Positions 12,810 to 34,532 of a stretch of DNA of 34,582 nucleotides are shown in pieces. Numbering within the stretch: the stretch's first letter is position 1; every line of letters begins with the position of its first letter. The stretch lies in the UHGV virus genome UHGV-0129090; one strand, 5' to 3'. The notes under the pieces were generated by a model. It worked only from the letters and a program-made list of their open reading frames with translations, did not search any database and was not told the DNA's origin. This DNA is from a virus. Both the position numbers and the translations under genes were made by a program.

Positions 12810-15800
12810 TTATTTATTCTGTGCAATTAGTAATTGAGTTACTACAGCACGTAGTTCATCTAGTTGTAGCTGTTGGTCTGCAATTTGTGCTTTTAGAGTA
12901 TCATTTTCTTTAGATAGTTCTTGGATTGCCGCAAGTCCGTCTAATAGCATTGGGGTTTGATCTAGATGATACAATTCACCAATTTTATTAACGTACTGTG
13001 GATCAATAGTCCTAATCTGTTGGCTAATTACACCGCGACGGGCTTTATCAGGGGTATCATTGAATGTAAAATCCTTAAATTCCATTCTATTGATATTTGA
13101 TAGAGCTACCTTAGTGTCTAAATCACTCTGGATAGTTTTAACAGACTGGTCAGATACTGCCGACATGGTTATTTGGTTCCATGCACTCCATGAGCTGTTG
13201 TTAGTCTGGATACGTGAGAATATACGGTTTGACGTATCATAGAAACGTTGTTGATACCATTGACCAGATACACCAGTTGCAGCACTAGGACCAGCATCTA
13301 GACCCTGCGTACATTGAGTGAATAGAGAGCCGTAAACACTACCCGACGTTGGGGCGTTAGACATAACACCGCCAGTATTTTTCCATCCTTGATACTGAAT
13401 GTTAAAATCATTACCAGACCCACCGTCTGTACTGTTACCGTTTGGTGCTAGGCCGCCATTATAGCCGACATACATCACTGTATTTGCCGATGGTTTGGCA
13501 AAACGTATAGTTTTACGGTTGGTAGTTGATGTATGACCATCCATAAAGAGATATAGACCATCCTCACCATTATTTTCAAAATATACACGTTTCCCAATAG
13601 TACCGTCGCCTACTCGGTTAGAGATAAGATAAACTCCGGGATAGTTGGCTTGTGCAACCAGTTTACTAGAAGAAATAATATCACCACTTGCCGTAACAGT
13701 ACCGGTAGATATTGATCCAGACGTTACAGTACCTGTTGTAGTCAATGATGCAGCATTAATACTATCAGTTGCTACAATAGATTCAGCATTTACACTACCT
13801 GTTGTAGTTAGTGATGCGGCGTTCAAACTACCTGTTGTAGTCAATGTACCCGTACTGGATAGATTACCCGTAACAGATAGATTTTTTAGAGTGGTATTTG
13901 CTGCTGCTGTACTAAGTGTATCCGTACTAGCTGTATATTTAATTACATCAAATGTATCATTTTTAGATAATGTAATATTACCAGCCGTTCCAATTAGTGA
14001 ATATTTTGTAGCACCTGTTCCCGTTTGATTGAGAATAAATGCAGGTGATCCACCTTCAATTGTAATTGGTGATGTTACTTTACCAGTGATTGATAGATTA
14101 CCATTAAATGATTGAGTACCTGCCCATGTATTAGCTAGATTCAGTGCTGGAATCTGATTCCATGTTCCATGTGTGCCAGCTTCGATAGTACGGAAGAATG
14201 CTTTATTCTGTCGGCCTACAATCTGGAAACCATAATTACCACTAAAGCCAGTATGAGTACCACCATAAACGTTAGCACCGTCTGGACCATTCACACTACC
14301 AGCCAGAAATCTACTACGGTTAATAATGGACGTTTGACCGTTCCAGTCCTGACCAGTTGAAGATAAAAATCCATTTGGTGAACTAAATGTACCATCGCTA
14401 TTAAAGTTGAAGAATTGAGTAGTATCACTTGAAGTAACGCCACGCCATACTAATTGAATTGCACCGTCGCTAGTTCTAAATTCTGATTGAGATTTAGTAG
14501 TTTTATCTGCATTCAATTGTTTTGATACAAAGGTAAAATCATTTACACCAGTACCGGAAGCAATAAAACCGTTACCCGCTTCAATATTACCACTAAAGGT
14601 TAATTTAGGAGATGTAATTGTTAGGTTATCGCCAATATTCATCCCATTTGAAAGTACAGCACGACCGCCACCACCGATATAATAGTTTGGTGTAGTAGTA
14701 GAACTATTGGACATATAAAAGCCAGGACGAGCTTGTCTAAAATCGAATAATGCACGTGTTCCGTTTGCTACTGCGGTACTCATTGGATCTTCTACGCCCC
14801 ACGGATAAACTACATCAGTCCCAGCGGTATATGATGCCGTTGGTGCAAATGCGGTACAGAATGCGGGTATCCTCATACGTACTGGGAACGCTCGACCCTC
14901 TACATATACTGCCATCTTATCTTCTGCAATCTTCGCACTAACTAGAATACAGTTAAGTGCTTTTTCAGTTGGTGCATAGCAGTTATAGTAACCATAGCCA
15001 GCATCACCGCGATCTGTCCATCCACCAGCACGTACGAAGCCGTTAAACTGTGCGGAGTTCATTGGATCACCACCAGAAGACGATTTAGTATATAGGTCGA
15101 TATGTGCACCAGTAGAAGAAATATTTTCATAGGATAGATCAATAATTACTGGATAGTATTTGTCTGCTTCCACTCCCGGAGGTGCCGGAATTGCGATTAT
15201 TTGACCACTACCAACGGTAGGGGCTTTAATATTATTTCTAGCAGTAGTAACGTCTGCTACATCACTTAGATTACTTGCAATTTTCAATTGTGCATCATTG
15301 GTTACATTACTTAGTCCTACATCACCTTTAGTGATTGAGATATTACCAGTAAGTGCTTTGCCATTAATAGTAGTAGTTTTTGGTACATATAGATTACTAA
15401 CTTCGGAAGAAGAAAGAATACCTAAGTTTGTTCTCGCCTGTGCTGCCGTACTTGCACCAGTACCGCCCTGTAGAATTGGTAATGCGTATGGTGCGTTGGC
15501 TGTGCCGTTCCATACTCCCCAGGTGCCATCGTTCTTAACAAATAAACGCATATTACCATCACCGGATACTACGCGAGTTTCTCCAACTGGATTAGCGTAT
15601 TCTTGGAAACGGCTTAAACCTAAGTTAGTACGGGCAACTGATTTATCAGCCACATCAGCAAGGTTACTTGCAATTTTCAACTGTGCATCATTGGTTACAT
15701 TACTTAGTCCTACATCACCTTTAGTGATTGAGATATTTGTAGTAAGTGGTCTACCGTTAATAGTACGGGATAATGGCACATACTGATCACTAATCTGAGT

Positions 15801-16511
15801 TGCAGTAAGTATACGCGTCCATGCTGTATTCTGGTTCTTTGCATAGATTGCCAATGTACCGGATTTAGTCATTGCAATACTGGAGAATGTACCGGAATCG
15901 ATAAGACCAATACCCATTAGATCCGCACTAGCTGGGTTATCATTGCGTGCTGCTGGTACTTTGATAAAACTGTTGCCATTTGGTAACTGTGGTTCGTACT
16001 GTGGTACGTCTACGCCGTTACTACCTACGCCATATGATCCTACAACTAGTCCGGTACTCAATGGTGCTTGACCATCACGTACTAGAACGTCGGTAGGGGT
16101 AAAGGTATATGATTTAGTAACTACTGAGTCTTTATCACCAGCAAGGCGAGCGGAACTAATCATACCATTCACCATACTATAGGAGATGATACCATCAGTT
16201 ACGGCGTACTGTAGTGTTAGCTGGAACTCGGTCTGATCTTCGGTCGCTTGGTCTAAAAATGCGTGAGCGGTGCAATCTGGTACGTAGTTAACAACAATAT
16301 CAATATCGTTTACGTTCTGTTCTGCGAGTAGTTTCTCTGAAAATTCACTGTTATATACTTCAATAGATTGTACTTGGCTATCAATACCGAATGAAGGCAT
16401 CGCCGCCAATTCATTTACTAGTTCATTCCCTGCGTTATCGGGGATACGGTTTGCGGTGTCGTCATTATAGAATAATTTAAAACCACTCCCTGTAAAAATT
16501 TGATCTGCCAT
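12810..16511 (-). CDS. Tail fibre protein with N-terminal major-tail-protein-like domain, tandem fibre repeats and C-terminal intramolecular-chaperone (peptidase S74-like) region
   Basis: 1233 aa; residues about 1-150 align with the 152-aa major tail protein; duplicated ITKGDVGLSNVTNDAQLKIASNL motif; Gly/Ser/Thr-rich shaft; C-terminal coiled coil. Confidence 0.7.
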   Translation of the reverse strand: MADQIFTGSGFKLFYNDDTANRIPDNAGNELVNELAAMPSFGIDSQVQSIEVYNSEFSEKLLAEQNVNDIDIVVNYVPDCTAHAFLDQATEDQTEFQLTLQYAVTDGIISYSMVNGMISSARLAGDKDSVVTKSYTFTPTDVLVRDGQAPLSTGLVVGSYGVGSNGVDVPQYEPQLPNGNSFIKVPAARNDNPASADLMGIGLIDSGTFSSIAMTKSGTLAIYAKNQNTAWTRILTATQISDQYVPLSRTINGRPLTTNISITKGDVGLSNVTNDAQLKIASNLADVADKSVARTNLGLSRFQEYANPVGETRVVSGDGNMRLFVKNDGTWGVWNGTANAPYALPILQGGTGASTAAQARTNLGILSSSEVSNLYVPKTTTINGKALTGNISITKGDVGLSNVTNDAQLKIASNLSDVADVTTARNNIKAPTVGSGQIIAIPAPPGVEADKYYPVIIDLSYENISSTGAHIDLYTKSSSGGDPMNSAQFNGFVRAGGWTDRGDAGYGYYNCYAPTEKALNCILVSAKIAEDKMAVYVEGRAFPVRMRIPAFCTAFAPTASYTAGTDVVYPWGVEDPMSTAVANGTRALFDFRQARPGFYMSNSSTTTPNYYIGGGGRAVLSNGMNIGDNLTITSPKLTFSGNIEAGNGFIASGTGVNDFTFVSKQLNADKTTKSQSEFRTSDGAIQLVWRGVTSSDTTQFFNFNSDGTFSSPNGFLSSTGQDWNGQTSIINRSRFLAGSVNGPDGANVYGGTHTGFSGNYGFQIVGRQNKAFFRTIEAGTHGTWNQIPALNLANTWAGTQSFNGNLSITGKVTSPITIEGGSPAFILNQTGTGATKYSLIGTAGNITLSKNDTFDVIKYTASTDTLSTAAANTTLKNLSVTGNLSSTGTLTTTGSLNAASLTTTGSVNAESIVATDSINAASLTTTGTVTSGSISTGTVTASGDIISSSKLVAQANYPGVYLISNRVGDGTIGKRVYFENNGEDGLYLFMDGHTSTTNRKTIRFAKPSANTVMYVGYNGGLAPNGNSTDGGSGNDFNIQYQGWKNTGGVMSNAPTSGSVYGSLFTQCTQGLDAGPSAATGVSGQWYQQRFYDTSNRIFSRIQTNNSSWSAWNQITMSAVSDQSVKTIQSDLDTKVALSNINRMEFKDFTFNDTPDKARRGVISQQIRTIDPQYVNKIGELYHLDQTPMLLDGLAAIQELSKENDTLKAQIADQQLQLDELRAVVTQLLIAQNK

Positions 16512-16524
16512 CTTTTAATTCCTT

Positions 16525-16974
16525 TTATTTTAAAGTTGCTACAATATTTATTGCAAAAGATAGCGATTGATAACCAGTTGACGGATCTGTTACTAGTTCA
16601 CTGTCGGCTACGTCATAGCTATGGAGTTGTACGCCATTATTACCAAATTCCATAATAGTATTAGTACGGAAGTAATCAAAAATAGTACCGAAGGTGTCAG
16701 CGGGTAAATTGATTGAAGGTTCTGGTACTAATAGGAATTGAAAGGTAAAATTACCCATTTGATTTTGATTATTATAGTTTACTGATTGGTATGTTTGATT
16801 GGTTGAAACAAGAATAAAGATATCTCGACCTGCTGCAATATTCATTGCCTTTCGAATTGGAATGATATTATTTAAACTGTCTCTAATAGTTTTCTGTACT
16901 TGTGTTAGTAGATTCATATTACCACCCGTAATTATTAATTGTTGATGGTCTAATGTAAACTTCACTAACACCAC
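16525..16974 (-). CDS. Head-tail connector / tail completion protein candidate
   Basis: Positional only: between capsid gene and tail genes. Confidence 0.35.
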   Translation of the reverse strand: MVLVKFTLDHQQLIITGGNMNLLTQVQKTIRDSLNNIIPIRKAMNIAAGRDIFILVSTNQTYQSVNYNNQNQMGNFTFQFLLVPEPSINLPADTFGTIFDYFRTNTIMEFGNNGVQLHSYDVADSELVTDPSTGYQSLSFAINIVATLK

Positions 16975-17239
16975 TTAAATCATTATAGATATTGAATACA
17001 GTGTAGTTAGTACCCTGTACGCCTACTACGGAATCAATAGCGATACTGTAAGTAGATAGATCATCAGTCTTTACTGATAGAAATGTTTCTGTACTCTCTA
17101 CTAGTCCTTCAGTCCCGCTATCAATGACAACGGGGCGATTATCTACAATTGCTGTAAACGTCGCCCCGTTAATTGTGATAGGTTCACCAAAGGCATTTAG
17201 GAAAGTAGAATCAATTTGATTGCTAGTAAAATGCCTCAT
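16919..17239 (-). CDS. Head-tail adaptor protein candidate
   Basis: Positional only: directly downstream of the major capsid gene. Confidence 0.35.
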   Translation of the reverse strand: MRHFTSNQIDSTFLNAFGEPITINGATFTAIVDNRPVVIDSGTEGLVESTETFLSVKTDDLSTYSIAIDSVVGVQGTNYTVFNIYNDLSGVSEVYIRPSTINNYGW

Positions 17240-17252
17240 AGTGGTTTTATCC

Positions 17253-19115
17253 TTATGGTTTTAGTTGTAGTTGTACAAATGCTTCTTCGTGTGCAATTGC
17301 TACGTCTAGGTACTGGAAGCTACGAATTGCGATAGTCTGAGCTGCACGGTAGGTAGTATCATCAAAATCTAGTTCTTGGCCTTCGTTCCAGTTAGCAAAG
17401 ATTAGTTCGGAAAAATCACCGATGAGAATAGTATCTGCTGCTACAAATGTGCTCTCCAAAACGCGGATCTCGTCGTTCAACCACATATCATAACGATGGC
17501 CTGCTACCATTGCGACGGCTGCGGTGTTATTCAATACTGCGGTTTGACGTAGTTTAGCGAGCATAGAAGGATGGACAATAGCTACACAACGATTGATATC
17601 TACGTTTTTAGCGGAGATAACTTCGATAGCTTTCTGTACGTCTGCTTCGGATACTTGACCAGATACTGCGGTTTGTTGTACTGGAACGGTAGTAGCGATT
17701 TGTGCAAATACTGCTGATTCTAGACCGTTAGAACATTGGCGTAGTAGCTCGTCGGTAACATAACGTTCGGTTGCTGCGTTGCTTAGTAGCATTGCTTTAG
17801 TGATCTTGATACCTGCTGCGAACATGCGAGGCTTTAGAGTGATCTTATCAAAGGTTTCGAAGCCGTCGGTTACTGCTTCATCTTCGTTATAGAATTTAGC
17901 TGCTGGGTTCATACCTTTAGCACGCGGGATAGAGAAGTTGCCACGACCAGCAAGGCCACCAAATACAGTCACTGGTAGTTGACCTAGTACGGTTTGTGCT
18001 AGTAGTTGGCGAATATACGCGTCGGATAGTTCTTCTTTTACTAGACCTGCCGCAGTTACGGTAGAAGTGGTATCAGCGGTGCTACGTACCATTGCGTTTA
18101 GGTCTGCATTATAACCGCGAGCACCTTTTTCGAAAGTTTCTAGATCGTGTGCTTCACCTTTTAGACTGCGTAGACCTTCGTTAATTAGAGATTTCTTTTC
18201 CATTTTTTTGATATCCTTATCAATTGATTTATTATCTGTATTTAGTGAGCGTTTAAAGTCTTCTACGCTTACACCGTTTTTAATTGCTTCTTCTGTACTA
18301 ACACCTAGTACCGAAGAGATAGATTGAAGTTCGCGAATACGATTTGCTTCTACTTCTTTATTTATACTTTCTTGAATATCAGTTACTGCAATAGAACGTT
18401 CTTCTACTAATTCCGGTTGTACTTCTTCTTGTACTTCCTCGATCACTTCGGGTTCTTCTACTACTTCTACTGATTCTTCACTTTCGACTACTACGGATTC
18501 TTCAATTACTTCTGGTTGCACTTCTTCTACTGGTGCTTCTTCAATAATTTCTACTTCCGGTACTAGTTCTTCTTTTTGTTCTGGTTCCATTTGGGGTTGA
18601 TCCTCTAAAGTAATTTCATCATTACTATTTAGTGATCTTCCAACACCAACACTATTATCTGCGGGAGTGGATACGCTAGATACTTCATATGGTTGCCATT
18701 TGGAAACAATGAGATCATTACCATCTAGATAATAGTCTAGGATGTTATAACCTACGGACACTTTAGGGCGAATACCTTCTACGATCATTCCGAAGATAGT
18801 ATTTGCGGTTCCTAGTGCACTAAAACGTACAGTAGCACGACATACCTTATCCATATCTACGCGAGCATTTTCTACTATACCAACCTGACGCATAGCATCA
18901 TGTTCTACTAGTACAGGTGCACCGTCATTGAGGCGGCTTAAGTCTACGTTTTCAGGACTGCATAAAAGGATCTCATTATAGAGAGTTCCTTTAATATCGC
19001 GTACTACTGGAATCTCGGAGGCAAAAGAGAGTTCTACTGTTCTATCGGTTTCATCAATTGCATTATTGATTTGCGTTAGATTGATCGCCCTCGTCTGGTT
19101 CTTGTTTAATTCCAT
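17253..19115 (-). CDS. Prohead protease - acidic scaffold linker - major capsid protein fusion (HK97-like)
   Basis: N-terminal APVLVEHD...VGIVEN and KVSVGY motifs resemble HK97-family prohead protease His/Ser regions; central acidic Glu/Val/Pro repeat region; C-terminal about 300 aa in the capsid position. Confidence 0.6.
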   Translation of the reverse strand: MELNKNQTRAINLTQINNAIDETDRTVELSFASEIPVVRDIKGTLYNEILLCSPENVDLSRLNDGAPVLVEHDAMRQVGIVENARVDMDKVCRATVRFSALGTANTIFGMIVEGIRPKVSVGYNILDYYLDGNDLIVSKWQPYEVSSVSTPADNSVGVGRSLNSNDEITLEDQPQMEPEQKEELVPEVEIIEEAPVEEVQPEVIEESVVVESEESVEVVEEPEVIEEVQEEVQPELVEERSIAVTDIQESINKEVEANRIRELQSISSVLGVSTEEAIKNGVSVEDFKRSLNTDNKSIDKDIKKMEKKSLINEGLRSLKGEAHDLETFEKGARGYNADLNAMVRSTADTTSTVTAAGLVKEELSDAYIRQLLAQTVLGQLPVTVFGGLAGRGNFSIPRAKGMNPAAKFYNEDEAVTDGFETFDKITLKPRMFAAGIKITKAMLLSNAATERYVTDELLRQCSNGLESAVFAQIATTVPVQQTAVSGQVSEADVQKAIEVISAKNVDINRCVAIVHPSMLAKLRQTAVLNNTAAVAMVAGHRYDMWLNDEIRVLESTFVAADTILIGDFSELIFANWNEGQELDFDDTTYRAAQTIAIRSFQYLDVAIAHEEAFVQLQLKP

Positions 19116-32205: not shown

Positions 32206-33804
32206 TCACTTCCTACTGTCAATCATTGTAGTAGCTAATGCCATTGCACCATCTACTACATTCTTCCAATACTCTAAAGCATCATCATCAAGATCACCAG
32301 ACAACGTACCATCTAGACTAAGACTACTAACAGATCTTAGAGTAGTAGTTAGTGTATTAGTACCACCAGTACCAGTACGCTGTATATCTACATCAATAAT
32401 CACTAGATGGCTTAGTGCATCAGACCAATACTTGATAGTACAGTATATGGTGTACTTAGACTTGCTTACATCTTCCCGTACTATGTTTATGTGCTGTATT
32501 AGCTTCTTAATGCGGTTGTTTAGTTCGATGCGATAGTTAGTATCTAAATCTAACTTATCATCATCAAAGGTTAGCTGTATATCCTTCGGTACGTCTACTG
32601 ATTTTAGGCGTATAGTCAATTCTTCCTGTTCGCGGTTCATGATCTCTAATTCATCCAGTATCGCAAACTTTTCATGCCTACTAGCTTTATTAAGACGTTC
32701 ACGGAACGCGGCAATATCCCTTTCGTTCTGAATCCACTGATCACGCAATGTTAGTACGTTATTATCTTCATGTTTATATACTTCACTGAAATCTAATCCA
32801 CGAATCGCCGTTAGTAATGGGCGTTCTAATGCGTTATATGCAATGCTACGGGCTTCACACGTTTTATTAGTACGTTTACCTAAGCAGACTGTAAAAAGAT
32901 TACCGTGGCTGTTACGCTTCACTATAATTGATTGATTGCATACTGGACACCGTGACATACCCGAAAATATATTGAGCATGTTTTTTTGGTGAGTATTACC
33001 CTTTTTGTTGGTGCTGGCTTTTAATGCCTGTACGCGGTCGTATAGGTCTTTATCAATTATTGGTGGATAACGTGCATCATCGGCAACTCGTTTATCACTA
33101 AGAGCACGTAATACGGTTACTAGTGTCCACGGCTTACCATTATCAGTATTGCCATAAGTACGGACAATCTGAGCCGCACCAATGCCATTAATATAATCAT
33201 TATACATACGCTGGATCGCCTTTGCTGTATCATTTGTACGGTACTGTTTCACGCCGTCTAGCTCTACTACATCAAACCATCGAGGCCGCACCTTTGATAC
33301 TTTTCCGTAGCGGTTGGCGTGTGACTTCTGCATCATTATACTTTTGCGTTTTGACTCCCCGTTAGCACGGTTTATTTGTATTGTAAGCACACTTAAACTT
33401 TCTGGAATATAACGCGAATACGTCATTCCTGTCTCAATCTCTAGGATAGTAGTACCACGGTTAATTAGACCGGATATGATTTCTACTGCCTGAAATGGAT
33501 CAAGACGTGTAAGGCGGTCGATGTTCTCTACGATTAGTACAGAATCATTGATCACACCGTCCATAACCATCTTTCGGTACTTGCCTAAGAGTGTTTTTTC
33601 ATTCCAGTTCTTCCCACGGAACGCCGATTTACCCTCTGCTACCATCTGCGTTATGTTCTCGGTATCGAGCGTAAAAGGTAGTCGATGGTCTAATACAACA
33701 TACTGTAAAAACTGATTGATTGTGTTTACCTGCCTTTGAATACCAAAGCCGTCAACCTGCTTGAGCGTTGAGATACGGGCATAACACCATACGGGCACTT
33801 TCAT
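32206..33804 (-). CDS. Large serine recombinase (phage integrase)
   Basis: N-terminal resolvase-type catalytic region YARISTLKQ and VENIDRLTR, followed by a large C-terminal domain with a Cys cluster (CPVCN...C...C); GGAGGT ribosome-binding site; start about 40 bp from attR. Confidence 0.85.
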   Translation of the reverse strand: MKVPVWCYARISTLKQVDGFGIQRQVNTINQFLQYVVLDHRLPFTLDTENITQMVAEGKSAFRGKNWNEKTLLGKYRKMVMDGVINDSVLIVENIDRLTRLDPFQAVEIISGLINRGTTILEIETGMTYSRYIPESLSVLTIQINRANGESKRKSIMMQKSHANRYGKVSKVRPRWFDVVELDGVKQYRTNDTAKAIQRMYNDYINGIGAAQIVRTYGNTDNGKPWTLVTVLRALSDKRVADDARYPPIIDKDLYDRVQALKASTNKKGNTHQKNMLNIFSGMSRCPVCNQSIIVKRNSHGNLFTVCLGKRTNKTCEARSIAYNALERPLLTAIRGLDFSEVYKHEDNNVLTLRDQWIQNERDIAAFRERLNKASRHEKFAILDELEIMNREQEELTIRLKSVDVPKDIQLTFDDDKLDLDTNYRIELNNRIKKLIQHINIVREDVSKSKYTIYCTIKYWSDALSHLVIIDVDIQRTGTGGTNTLTTTLRSVSSLSLDGTLSGDLDDDALEYWKNVVDGAMALATTMIDSRK

Positions 33805-33844
33805 CTACTTACCTCCATTCACTGTGGTGTACATCCTATCACAA

Positions 33845-33850
33845 CTGTTC
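33845..33850. repeat. attR core (ctgttc) at right prophage/host junction
   Basis: Same hexamer as 667-672; host frame resumes here; phage arm gtggtgtacat (33824-33834) mirrors atgtacgccac (687-697) across the core. Confidence 0.7.
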
Positions 33851-34532
33851 ATTGCTGCTGATGGGGCCGCAGTGGCGTTCGCGTCTCGATCGTGAAGCCA
33901 GCCTGCTGGGTCACAGTGGTTGCCGTATTGGCGGTAACGATCTGGATATCGCGCTGGCGTTTAAAAACCTGATGCCGTTACTGGGCATGGGTGGCGAAAC
34001 CGAAAAAGGCATCGCCCTGCCGATTCTGCCGTGGTGGAATGCGGTTGCCATCAACGACGTTCCTGCACAGAGTGATTTCTACAGTAGTGCCAACGGTCGT
34101 CTGCTTAACGATCTGGTACGCGATGCCCGCGAACCGGAAAAAGTGGCCCTGTTACAGAAAGTCTGGCGTCAGCGTTTAAGCTATCGCCTGGTGCGTAGCG
34201 CAGAAGAGAGCAAAATCGCCCTTTCAAGCACTGCGGAAACCCGCGCCTCACTGCCGTTTATCAGCGATGAACTGGCTACGCTGATTAGCCAGCAAGGGCT
34301 GGAAAGCGCCCTCAGCCAGCCACTGGCGCGGATTCTGGAACAGGTGCAACTGGCGCTGGATAACGCCCAGGAAAAACCGGACGTTATCTACCTGACCGGC
34401 GGTAGCGCCCGTTCGCCGCTGATTAAAAAAGCGCTGGCAGAACAGTTGCCGGGCATTCCGATTGCAGGCGGCGATGACTTTGGCTCCGTCACCGCCGGGC
34501 TGGCACGCTGGGCAGAAGTGGTATTTCGTTAA
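33845..34532 (+). CDS. yegD: Host YegD, 3' fragment continuing the interrupted gene (track ORF 33768-34532 includes a phage-derived 5' extension)
   Basis: GC-rich; begins CSLLLMGPQW exactly where the left fragment ends; ends LTGGSARSPLIKKALAEQLPGIPIAGGDDFGSVTAGLARWAEVVFR. Confidence 0.85.

Follow-up and report, generated by a model that had tools for sequence, protein, structure and literature searches.

Introduction

To our knowledge, the fixation of side fibres on flexible phage tails has been solved for only a few phages, namely through the collar of T5 and through Dit/BppU baseplates. In phage T5, protein p140 is encoded by a duplicate of the gene of the tail tube protein (TTP); placed as a single ring where the tube meets the distal tail protein, p140 carries the p132 collar that holds the fibres (PMC10038345). 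The N-termini of the T5 fibres are woven into this external, dodecameric, Ig-like collar (PMC10713586). According to the authors of the T5 study, only T5-like phages have p140 and p132, and the anchoring of fibres elsewhere must differ (PMC10038345). Here, we analysed a stretch of DNA of 34,582 nucleotides (UHGV virus genome UHGV-0129090; hereafter, the window), which encodes a tail fibre of 1233 amino acids (aa) on the minus strand (12810-16511), between the genes for the tail terminator and the TTP. We show that residues 1-145 of this fibre are an old, diverged duplicate of the phage's own TTP, and we discuss how such a domain might fix the fibre to the tail.

T4 gp54, like T5 p140, is a tube-protein duplicate that serves as a special ring. 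Tube proteins that carry a host-adhesion module outside the tail at their C-terminus, as the fibre studied here does, are also known: SPP1 gp17.1*, the Ig domain of lambda gpV and TpeX of the lactococcal 936 phages. However, the extensions of these proteins are single small Ig, FN3 or CBM domains on the major tube protein, often produced via frameshifting, whereas in the window a separate, diverged paralogue carries an S74 fibre of ~1000 residues and the major TTP is undecorated. In 936-type phages, a gene for a fibre-like accessory adhesin also lies between the neck and major tail protein genes. Another likeness is offered by the "evolved" Hcp proteins of type VI secretion, in which a tube subunit with a C-terminal effector occurs beside an unextended tube paralogue; these differ in that they belong to another machine, carry toxin cargo, and have an extension that is thought to face the lumen or to be delivered, and is not displayed for adsorption. 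Finally, the lactococcal neck passage structure (NPS) proteins, which we group with the collar-whiskers of TP901-1, combine a conserved N-terminal anchor of ~130-180 residues with variable distal modules (PMC6669499), as do the members of the fibre family described below. The NPS anchor, on the other hand, is a BppU-like beta-sandwich that is predicted to form an external 18-mer collar, and is not a tube paralogue.

Already known, then, are tube duplicates that act as special rings, tube proteins with small adhesion domains, and fibres with a conserved anchor and a variable tip. What appears to be new is the fusion of a diverged tube paralogue to an S74 fibre of ~1000 residues beside an undecorated TTP, which we found neither in the records of cultured phages nor in the literature, where we encountered no description of a tube-protein/fibre fusion or of a "minor" or "second tail tube protein" of this architecture.

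The fibre's N-terminal domain is a duplicate of the tail tube protein

A first-pass annotation of the window, made from its letters alone, had proposed that the N-terminus of the fibre is a paralogue of the adjacent 152-aa TTP. Several lines of evidence bear this out. First, BLASTP aligned fibre residues 1-160 with the co-resident TTP end to end, at a significant 31% identity (E=2e-21), and the shared motifs that had been listed (YNS, KLL, DI, VNY and AG-KD-VVTK-x-T) are present in the alignment. Secondly, residues 1-144 match the "major tail protein" profile phrog_158 at E=4.7e-20, and the fibre domain and the TTP, both at about 1e-20, cover the same columns of that profile. Thirdly, structure prediction gave a tube fold and not an unrelated one. 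An AlphaFold2 monomer model of residues 1-250 (mean pLDDT 71.6) contains a beta-sandwich of two sheets, flanked by one helix, as well as a long beta2-beta3 loop (E-loop), and a Foldseek comparison with viral models agrees with this assignment; the tube proteins listed with the fold result are the Sf11 TTP (11.9), RcGTA (11.7), SPP1 gp17.1* (11.4), R4C (11.4) and the T5 "minor tail protein" p140 (11.1). Fourthly, the domain recurs in more than 100 protein clusters (see below).

In the model, most of the sandwich core has pLDDT values of 77-91 in blocks of ten residues. Low confidence within the tube domain is confined to the N-arm (residues 1-9) and to the loop formed by residues 48-63, around which the values dip to 44-64. 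This loop corresponds to the ring-to-ring E-loop of assembled tubes, which is the site of the contacts between rings in solved structures (PMC12917162, PMC10038345). Both elements are present at full length in the fibre domain, and the alignment with the TTP runs without gaps through the N-arm and the beta2-beta3 E-loop region. Both proteins are acidic, with isoelectric points of 4.1 for the fibre domain and 4.5 for the TTP.

The gene located directly upstream of those for the tail assembly chaperones (the G/GT pair) is that of the 152-aa TTP, not that of the fibre, and the fibre domain is the faster-evolving of the two. Hence, the tube-like domain of the fibre (16077-16511, minus strand), to which we refer as the "minor TTP" or F-type domain, is not the major tube protein itself but its paralogue. 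Neither the TTP nor the whole fibre nor a terminator profile retrieved anything of use from PDB sequences, and none of eight proteins compared with NCBIfam gave a match. Three uncultured phage proteins in BFVD (A0A6J5NST7, 636 aa; A0A6J7WFB0, 651 aa; A0A6J5NYS7, 457 aa) also have a tube-like fold at their start. As these proteins of 450-650 aa begin in this way, long C-terminal extensions on tube-fold proteins may be a more general phenomenon.

The fusion defines a family in enterobacterial prophages

A profile of the N-terminal 200 residues, scored against 1.84 billion representative proteins, gave 148 matches, 97 of which at E<1e-30; almost all of the matching proteins have a size of 600-1560 aa and match with their own residues 1-200. 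About 115 clusters (50% identity) carry the N-terminal module, in proteins of 340-1560 aa. Separate profile hidden Markov models built from the fibre-type (F) and the tube-type (T) paralogues assigned 114 long proteins to the F-type and most of the short ones to the T-type. Seven species genomes contain members of the family (Pseudocitrobacter, Buttiauxella, two Phytobacter, Enterobacter, Pluralibacter and Scandinavium), as do 69 IMG/VR contigs with lengths of 22-36 kb. The intact fusion is known from these six genera and also from E. coli, Pantoea and Yersinia. The architecture is thus unusual, as the first-pass annotation had it, but it is not a singular oddity: it is that of a conserved family, widespread in prophages of Enterobacteriaceae (E. 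coli, Enterobacter, Pantoea, Yersinia and others); RefSeq lists its proteins simply as "tail fiber domain-containing protein" or as "S74 family peptidase".

This distribution also bears on the trivial explanation that the resemblance is due to chance, that the fusion is an artefact of assembly or annotation, or that it is a decaying pseudogene. The fact that some database members are fragmentary or frameshifted (loci L003 and L087) is the one point in its favour. Given the E value of the alignment, the about 115 clusters, and intact fusions in nine genera as well as in the 69 contigs, we regard this explanation as already refuted and its probability as practically nil.

In 65 of 76 loci the fusion gene is followed by a separate TTP gene, usually after a spacer of ~55 nt; the other loci are cut by contig ends. 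In some loci the two genes are separated by one to three others. One distant member has a fusion of 1209 aa that contains a T4 gp36 domain and is followed by a 490-aa S74 protein; in another, a 548-aa fusion is followed by proteins of 1081 and 127 aa. These additional fibre proteins behind the fusion indicate that the tube-like protein forms the proximal part of a fibre apparatus, which may consist of one or of several proteins.

Conservation among 94 members extends from residue 1 to about residue 300, and hence covers the tube domain, the linker, a small beta domain and the first fibre repeat. From about residue 450 onwards, resemblance to the window protein is limited to 1-7 of the 117 family representatives (residues 450-1100), and an S74-like C-terminus is found in 63 of the 117. 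In E. coli WGI31CT, for example, the same slot holds a 1074-aa protein whose N-terminus is 94% identical and which contains pyocin-knob and S74 domains. Such a combination of a conserved anchor (1-300) and a recombining host-range cassette is a usual one. The conserved module marks the boundary of that cassette, and it might serve as a compact handle by which receptor-binding fibres could be grafted onto the tails of siphophages or onto tailocins.

Among 50,697 records of cultured phages, tblastn found no match to the N-terminal domain, either with 160 aa at E<=1e-5 or with 250 aa at E<=1, and a DNA megablast search against cultured phage records gave nothing. Escherichia phage DCP80 (PQ671644, 13211-16877), the only cultured phage with a match to the TTP, was considered as a precedent and rejected, as the 745-aa protein encoded upstream of its TTP is not a tube fusion. 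Its record of 141 kb is filed under Straboviridae (T4-like), yet it contains a siphophage-type block of TTP, G, T and tape measure genes, and a TTP that is 45% identical to that of the window, which is odd for a myovirus record. It is possible that this record is a chimeric assembly.

Evolution of the two paralogues

We compared the F-type domains and the TTPs of 53 non-redundant pairs. The median identity is 0.46 among F-type domains and 0.62 among TTPs, whereas the identity between the two types does not exceed 0.39 and has a median of 0.28 within loci. In a neighbour-joining tree (no bootstrap), the F-type domains form one clade apart from the TTPs. The separation of the two groups, both in identity and in the tree, points to one old duplication of which both copies have been kept since. 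Eighteen columns are conserved at >=80% with the same residue in both groups, among them a glycine of the N-arm, residues that flank the E-loop (S, LL and VNY), and those of the strand GDKD.VVTK.

The tube-like domain and the fibre move between phages as one recombination cassette. In the prophages of Y. enterocolitica and Y. rohdei, whose fibre slots lie at 6001-6600 (locus L082) and 6001-8250 (locus L088), the DNA similarity breaks off precisely where the F gene starts, to return just before the TTP gene. Likewise, in an E. coli relative (NZ_CM151386, 1828787-1829536) the DNA of the N-domain is 79% identical to that of the window, versus 91.5% for the whole region.

The Yersinia prophages also provide a case in which the fibre is missing. 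The fibre slot of Y. enterocolitica and Y. kristensenii prophages (132 contigs) holds an intact stand-alone F-type protein of 153 aa (6001-6462 in the Y. enterocolitica prophage loci L082-L084), which stops where the domain ends (…TDIQARGSAKIKLKN); a normal TTP comes next. In the tree, this protein nests among the fused forms, beside a 673-aa fusion from Y. rohdei, so that the fibre was probably lost in Yersinia. The retention of an intact fibre-less copy across species hints at a structural role for the domain by itself. Three other candidates for a stand-alone copy were discarded: P0128 (locus L087) turned out to be a frameshifted fusion, and P0091 and P0001 are cut by contig ends.

A possible mode of attachment

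We consider it probable, though well short of certain, that the protein is a lateral (side) fibre of a temperate siphophage resembling lambda and gene transfer agents (GTAs), and that its tube-like domain takes positions of tube subunits, probably as a dedicated ring. Insertion of this domain into the tail as an anchor, which the first-pass annotation had suggested, is still the most plausible reading, and it is favoured by several observations. First, the elements that stack rings, the N-arm and the E-loop, are retained at full length. Secondly, the domain is fused to a T5-like S74 fibre, and the anchor is conserved throughout the family. Thirdly, no separate gene for a collar or adaptor is left: all open reading frames (ORFs) of the tail module are otherwise assigned (the tape measure by position and size only). 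A homologue of T5 LtfC/p132 and the N-terminal anchor of T5 fibres were not found in the window by tblastn (HildyBeyeler LtfC and residues 1-150 of its lateral tail fibre (LTF) as queries; nothing better than E=0.5). Finally, T5 p140 offers a precedent for a tube duplicate that carries fibres, and the fibre-less copy in Yersinia is compatible with a role of the domain in the tube. It is from these observations that we infer incorporation into the tube; the stoichiometry and the position of the ring, as given below, are likewise proposals.

The anchor would consist of the tube duplicate (residues 1-145) together with the conserved linker and the small beta domain (146-240), whereas residues ~240-1119 would form the shaft and tip, which are swapped by recombination between phages and would set host recognition. 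The S74 chaperone (1120-1233) would drive trimerization and then cut itself off at S1120. The tube-like domain would occupy tube-subunit positions, probably in one dedicated hexameric ring, of which the six chains would give two trimeric fibres; the invariant linker of ~34 residues may bridge the symmetry mismatch or grip the neighbouring ring. The fibre would thereby be covalently part of the tube wall, and one polypeptide would do the job of three in T5: the ring of the tube duplicate p140, the p132 collar and the pb1 fibre. In T5 and DT57C these are separate proteins (p140, p132/LtfC and pb1/LtfA), whereas here fibre and tube duplicate form one covalent chain. T5 depends on a collar gene and on a fibre N-terminus threaded through the collar, neither of which was found here. 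Moreover, T5 p140 is a pseudo-hexameric trimer of a protein with two tube domains, whereas the fibre has a single one, so that a hexamer is expected. By analogy, then, the family looks like a fused, collar-less version of the T5 system.

If this is true, the mounting of side fibres would have a third and simpler solution, namely a fibre with a tube subunit of its own, and the structural question arises of how a six-fold ring feeds three-fold fibres. The most specific form of the proposal combines several elements: the fibre itself supplies one ring of the tube, from which two trimers emerge via the G[SD]YGVGSNG..PQYEP linker without a collar, baseplate or adaptor; ring and fibre are exchanged as a unit, so that the anchor is portable and inserts itself; and the ring is required, and has persisted in Yersinia after the loss of the fibre. 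For all of these together we would give slightly less than an even chance. As to the location of the ring, the analogy with T5 and the function would favour a place beside the distal tail protein, whereas the gene order favours the head-proximal end, beside the terminator.

Several results weigh against insertion into the tube wall. Pfam Phage_tail_3 is silent on the fibre domain at E<=0.1, although the TTP passes. The F-type domain evolves faster than the TTP (median identity 0.46 versus 0.62); between the Y. enterocolitica and Y. rohdei prophages it is only 37% identical, against 78% for the terminator and 82% for the TTP. Such divergence would not be expected of a subunit that sits between conserved neighbours. 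In a test of co-evolution, pairwise identities of the N-domain correlate with those of the TTP (Spearman, 0.61), the terminator (0.57) and G (0.59) to a similar extent, with a range of 0.54-0.61 when FII and the major capsid protein are included, so that these correlations do not discriminate the neighbouring partner. A six-fold ring that feeds three-fold fibres requires an adaptation of symmetry, for which the conserved linker is the sole hint. Finally, the stand-alone copy in Yersinia represents a single lineage and could be an inert remnant; in a comparison of nonsynonymous and synonymous substitution rates (dN and dS) with a fused relative, dS was saturated (>2).

Some of these results would fit better if the domain were located outside the tube wall, either as an external accessory ring or handle on the tail or neck, or mainly as a module recognized by the G/GT chaperones. 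Fast evolution, and exchange with the fibre as one cassette, suggest loose constraints from neighbours, and the known fibre collars (T5 p132 and lactococcal NPS) are external rings. However, a collar in the T5 or lactococcal sense, that is, an external Ig-like ring, which the first-pass annotation had allowed for, is not what the fold suggests. A position outside the wall seems to us quite unlikely.

A conserved hairpin between the fibre and tail tube protein genes

The spacer of 58 nt (12752-12809) between the fibre and TTP genes contains a GC-rich hairpin (12781-12803, minus strand; RNAfold, -13.4 kcal/mol). A hairpin is present at the same place in all 25 related spacers tested (loci L004-L071), with stems of 7-10 bp in 22 of them and weaker ones in three, counts that are biased towards pairing because the stems were defined by RNAfold; the hairpin of the window belongs to the class of 7-10 bp as well. 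The stem sequences are not the same in all loci, and a GGA is usually part of the loop (AGGAA, TGGAC or CGGA). Downstream of the hairpin lies a conserved ribosome-binding region, CTTATATAAGGA(A/T)ATAAAA. As a U-run is absent on the coding strand, the hairpin is not an obvious terminator, and a scan of positions 11500-17500 revealed no coding-strand terminator between the two paralogous genes and promoter-like sites that are no commoner than in shuffled sequences. It is possible that the hairpin tunes the ratio of fibre to TTP expression. As an idea only, drawn from the sequence, the GGA of the loop together with the GGA in the Shine-Dalgarno region might resemble a CsrA-type binding site.

The hairpin is relevant to another explanation, in which the fusion protein replaces the TTP at random positions of the tube, in a ratio set by expression, so that the fibres would be scattered along the tail. 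A conserved hairpin between both genes could set such a ratio, and the N-domain equals the TTP in length and loops. Scattered subunits with a C-terminal extension also have precedents in SPP1, where gp17.1 and gp17.1* occur at 3:1 (PMC8718954), and in the TpeX extension of the lactococcal major tail protein (PMC6669499). However, the SPP1 and lactococcal extensions are added by frameshifting to the same TTP sequence, whereas the paralogue studied here has diverged to ~28% identity and is separate from the TTP throughout the family, which would be needless for a mere substitute. Furthermore, the fibre-less paralogue of Yersinia would have no obvious use, and a pre-formed trimer with three tube domains would suit adjacent positions better than random ones. 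We therefore consider a random co-polymer unlikely, and prefer a dedicated ring.

The linker, shaft and tip of the fibre

The linker that follows the tube domain (G[SD]YGVGSNG.DVPQYEP; residues 146-178; 15978-16076, minus strand, as are all segments of the fibre) is the most conserved stretch of the family: column conservation reaches 0.76 at residues 161-170 among the 94 members. It is predicted to be disordered in the monomer model (pLDDT 36-48). Next comes a small conserved beta domain (GNSFIKVP...AIYAKNQNTAW; residues 179-236; 15804-15977) with five strands (pLDDT 71-85), which is conserved in about 106-117 of the 117 representatives.

The first-pass annotation had also predicted tandem fibre repeats and a C-terminus resembling an auto-cleaving chaperone, and both were recovered. 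Two repeats of 57 aa, 74% identical and 74 residues apart, are located at residues 244-300 (YVPLSRTINGRPLTTNISITKGDVGLSNVTNDAQLKIASNLADVADKSVARTNLGLS; 15612-15782), where the sequence matches the tail fibre family phrog_5481, and at residues 375-431 (15219-15389). The shaft (residues ~421-793; 14133-15251) is homologous to the lateral tail fibres of T5-like phages and Seuratvirus: it is 52.7% identical to residues 603-965 of the LTF of the T5-like phage HildyBeyeler (tblastn, E=1e-112) and matches phrog_6578 at 1.1e-126. In total, 787 phage records match parts of the fibre, and Seuratvirus fibres give similar matches to the shaft. The distal part (residues 794-1119; 13155-14132) is a variable cassette and presumably binds the receptor.

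The C-terminus (residues 1120-1233; 12813-13154) consists of a Peptidase_S74 chaperone and a terminal coiled coil. Pfam PF13884 matches residues 1120-1174 with 26.4 bits (cut-off 22), and a helical segment follows the S74 domain. At the start of the S74 match, the motif SDQSVK (1120-1125) contains the putative cleavage site S1120 and, five residues on, K1125; the catalytic dyad of endosialidase, S911/K916, likewise has a lysine five residues downstream of the serine. In known systems the S74 chaperone domain belongs to trimeric fibres and spikes, such as endosialidase and T5 pb1.

The prophage and its tail genes

The window comprises an entire temperate siphophage prophage of ~33 kb that is integrated in the E. 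coli gene yegD, the halves of which (2-676 and 33768-34532, plus strand) are found at the ends of the window; a large serine recombinase is encoded at one end of the prophage (32206-33804, minus strand). A relative occupies the same yegD site in two RefSeq E. coli genomes, and a close relative is present in 2 of 5,426 complete E. coli genomes. All phage genes are on the minus strand, in a lambda-like order that starts with TerS and TerL.

Every canonical role in the neck and tail is held by another gene, so that the fibre with the tube domain is an extra component between the terminator and the TTP. Downstream of the fibre gene, the 152-aa TTP (12293-12751; Pfam Phage_tail_3, 1.3e-6; phrog_158, 1.6e-19) is followed by the tail assembly chaperones G (11927-12229; phrog_344) and T (11547-11861), which together span 11547-12229. 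A canonical -1 slippery site, A AAA AAA (11930-11936), is located in the last codons of G, and the T reading frame is open from this site on, as in the usual G/GT pair. The ORF at 9347-11545 (732 aa), which lies after T and before the gene for the distal tail protein, is the candidate for the tape measure, by position and size only. The distal tail protein (Dit; 8725-9279; phrog_1302) is followed by two hub proteins, assigned by matches, and a gpJ-type central fibre of 1100 aa (phrog_31).

Upstream of the fibre gene, TerL is followed by a 174-aa head-tail joining protein (adaptor; phrog_5774), the portal gene and a 620-aa fusion of prohead protease and major capsid protein (17253-19115; phrog_617 and phrog_4523); relatives of this fusion have Peptidase_S78 and Phage_capsid within one ORF. 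A lambda FII-like head-tail joining protein (stopper; 16919-17239) matches Pfam Phage_attach at 9e-7 (29.8 bits, cut-off 26), and the tail terminator of 130 aa (16525-16917), assigned by a match, lies directly upstream of the fibre gene. A mechanical ORF list gives the terminator as a 149-aa ORF with a GTG start (16525-16974, minus strand) that overlaps the FII-like gene; homologues and RefSeq place its start at an internal ATG (16917), which yields the 130 aa.

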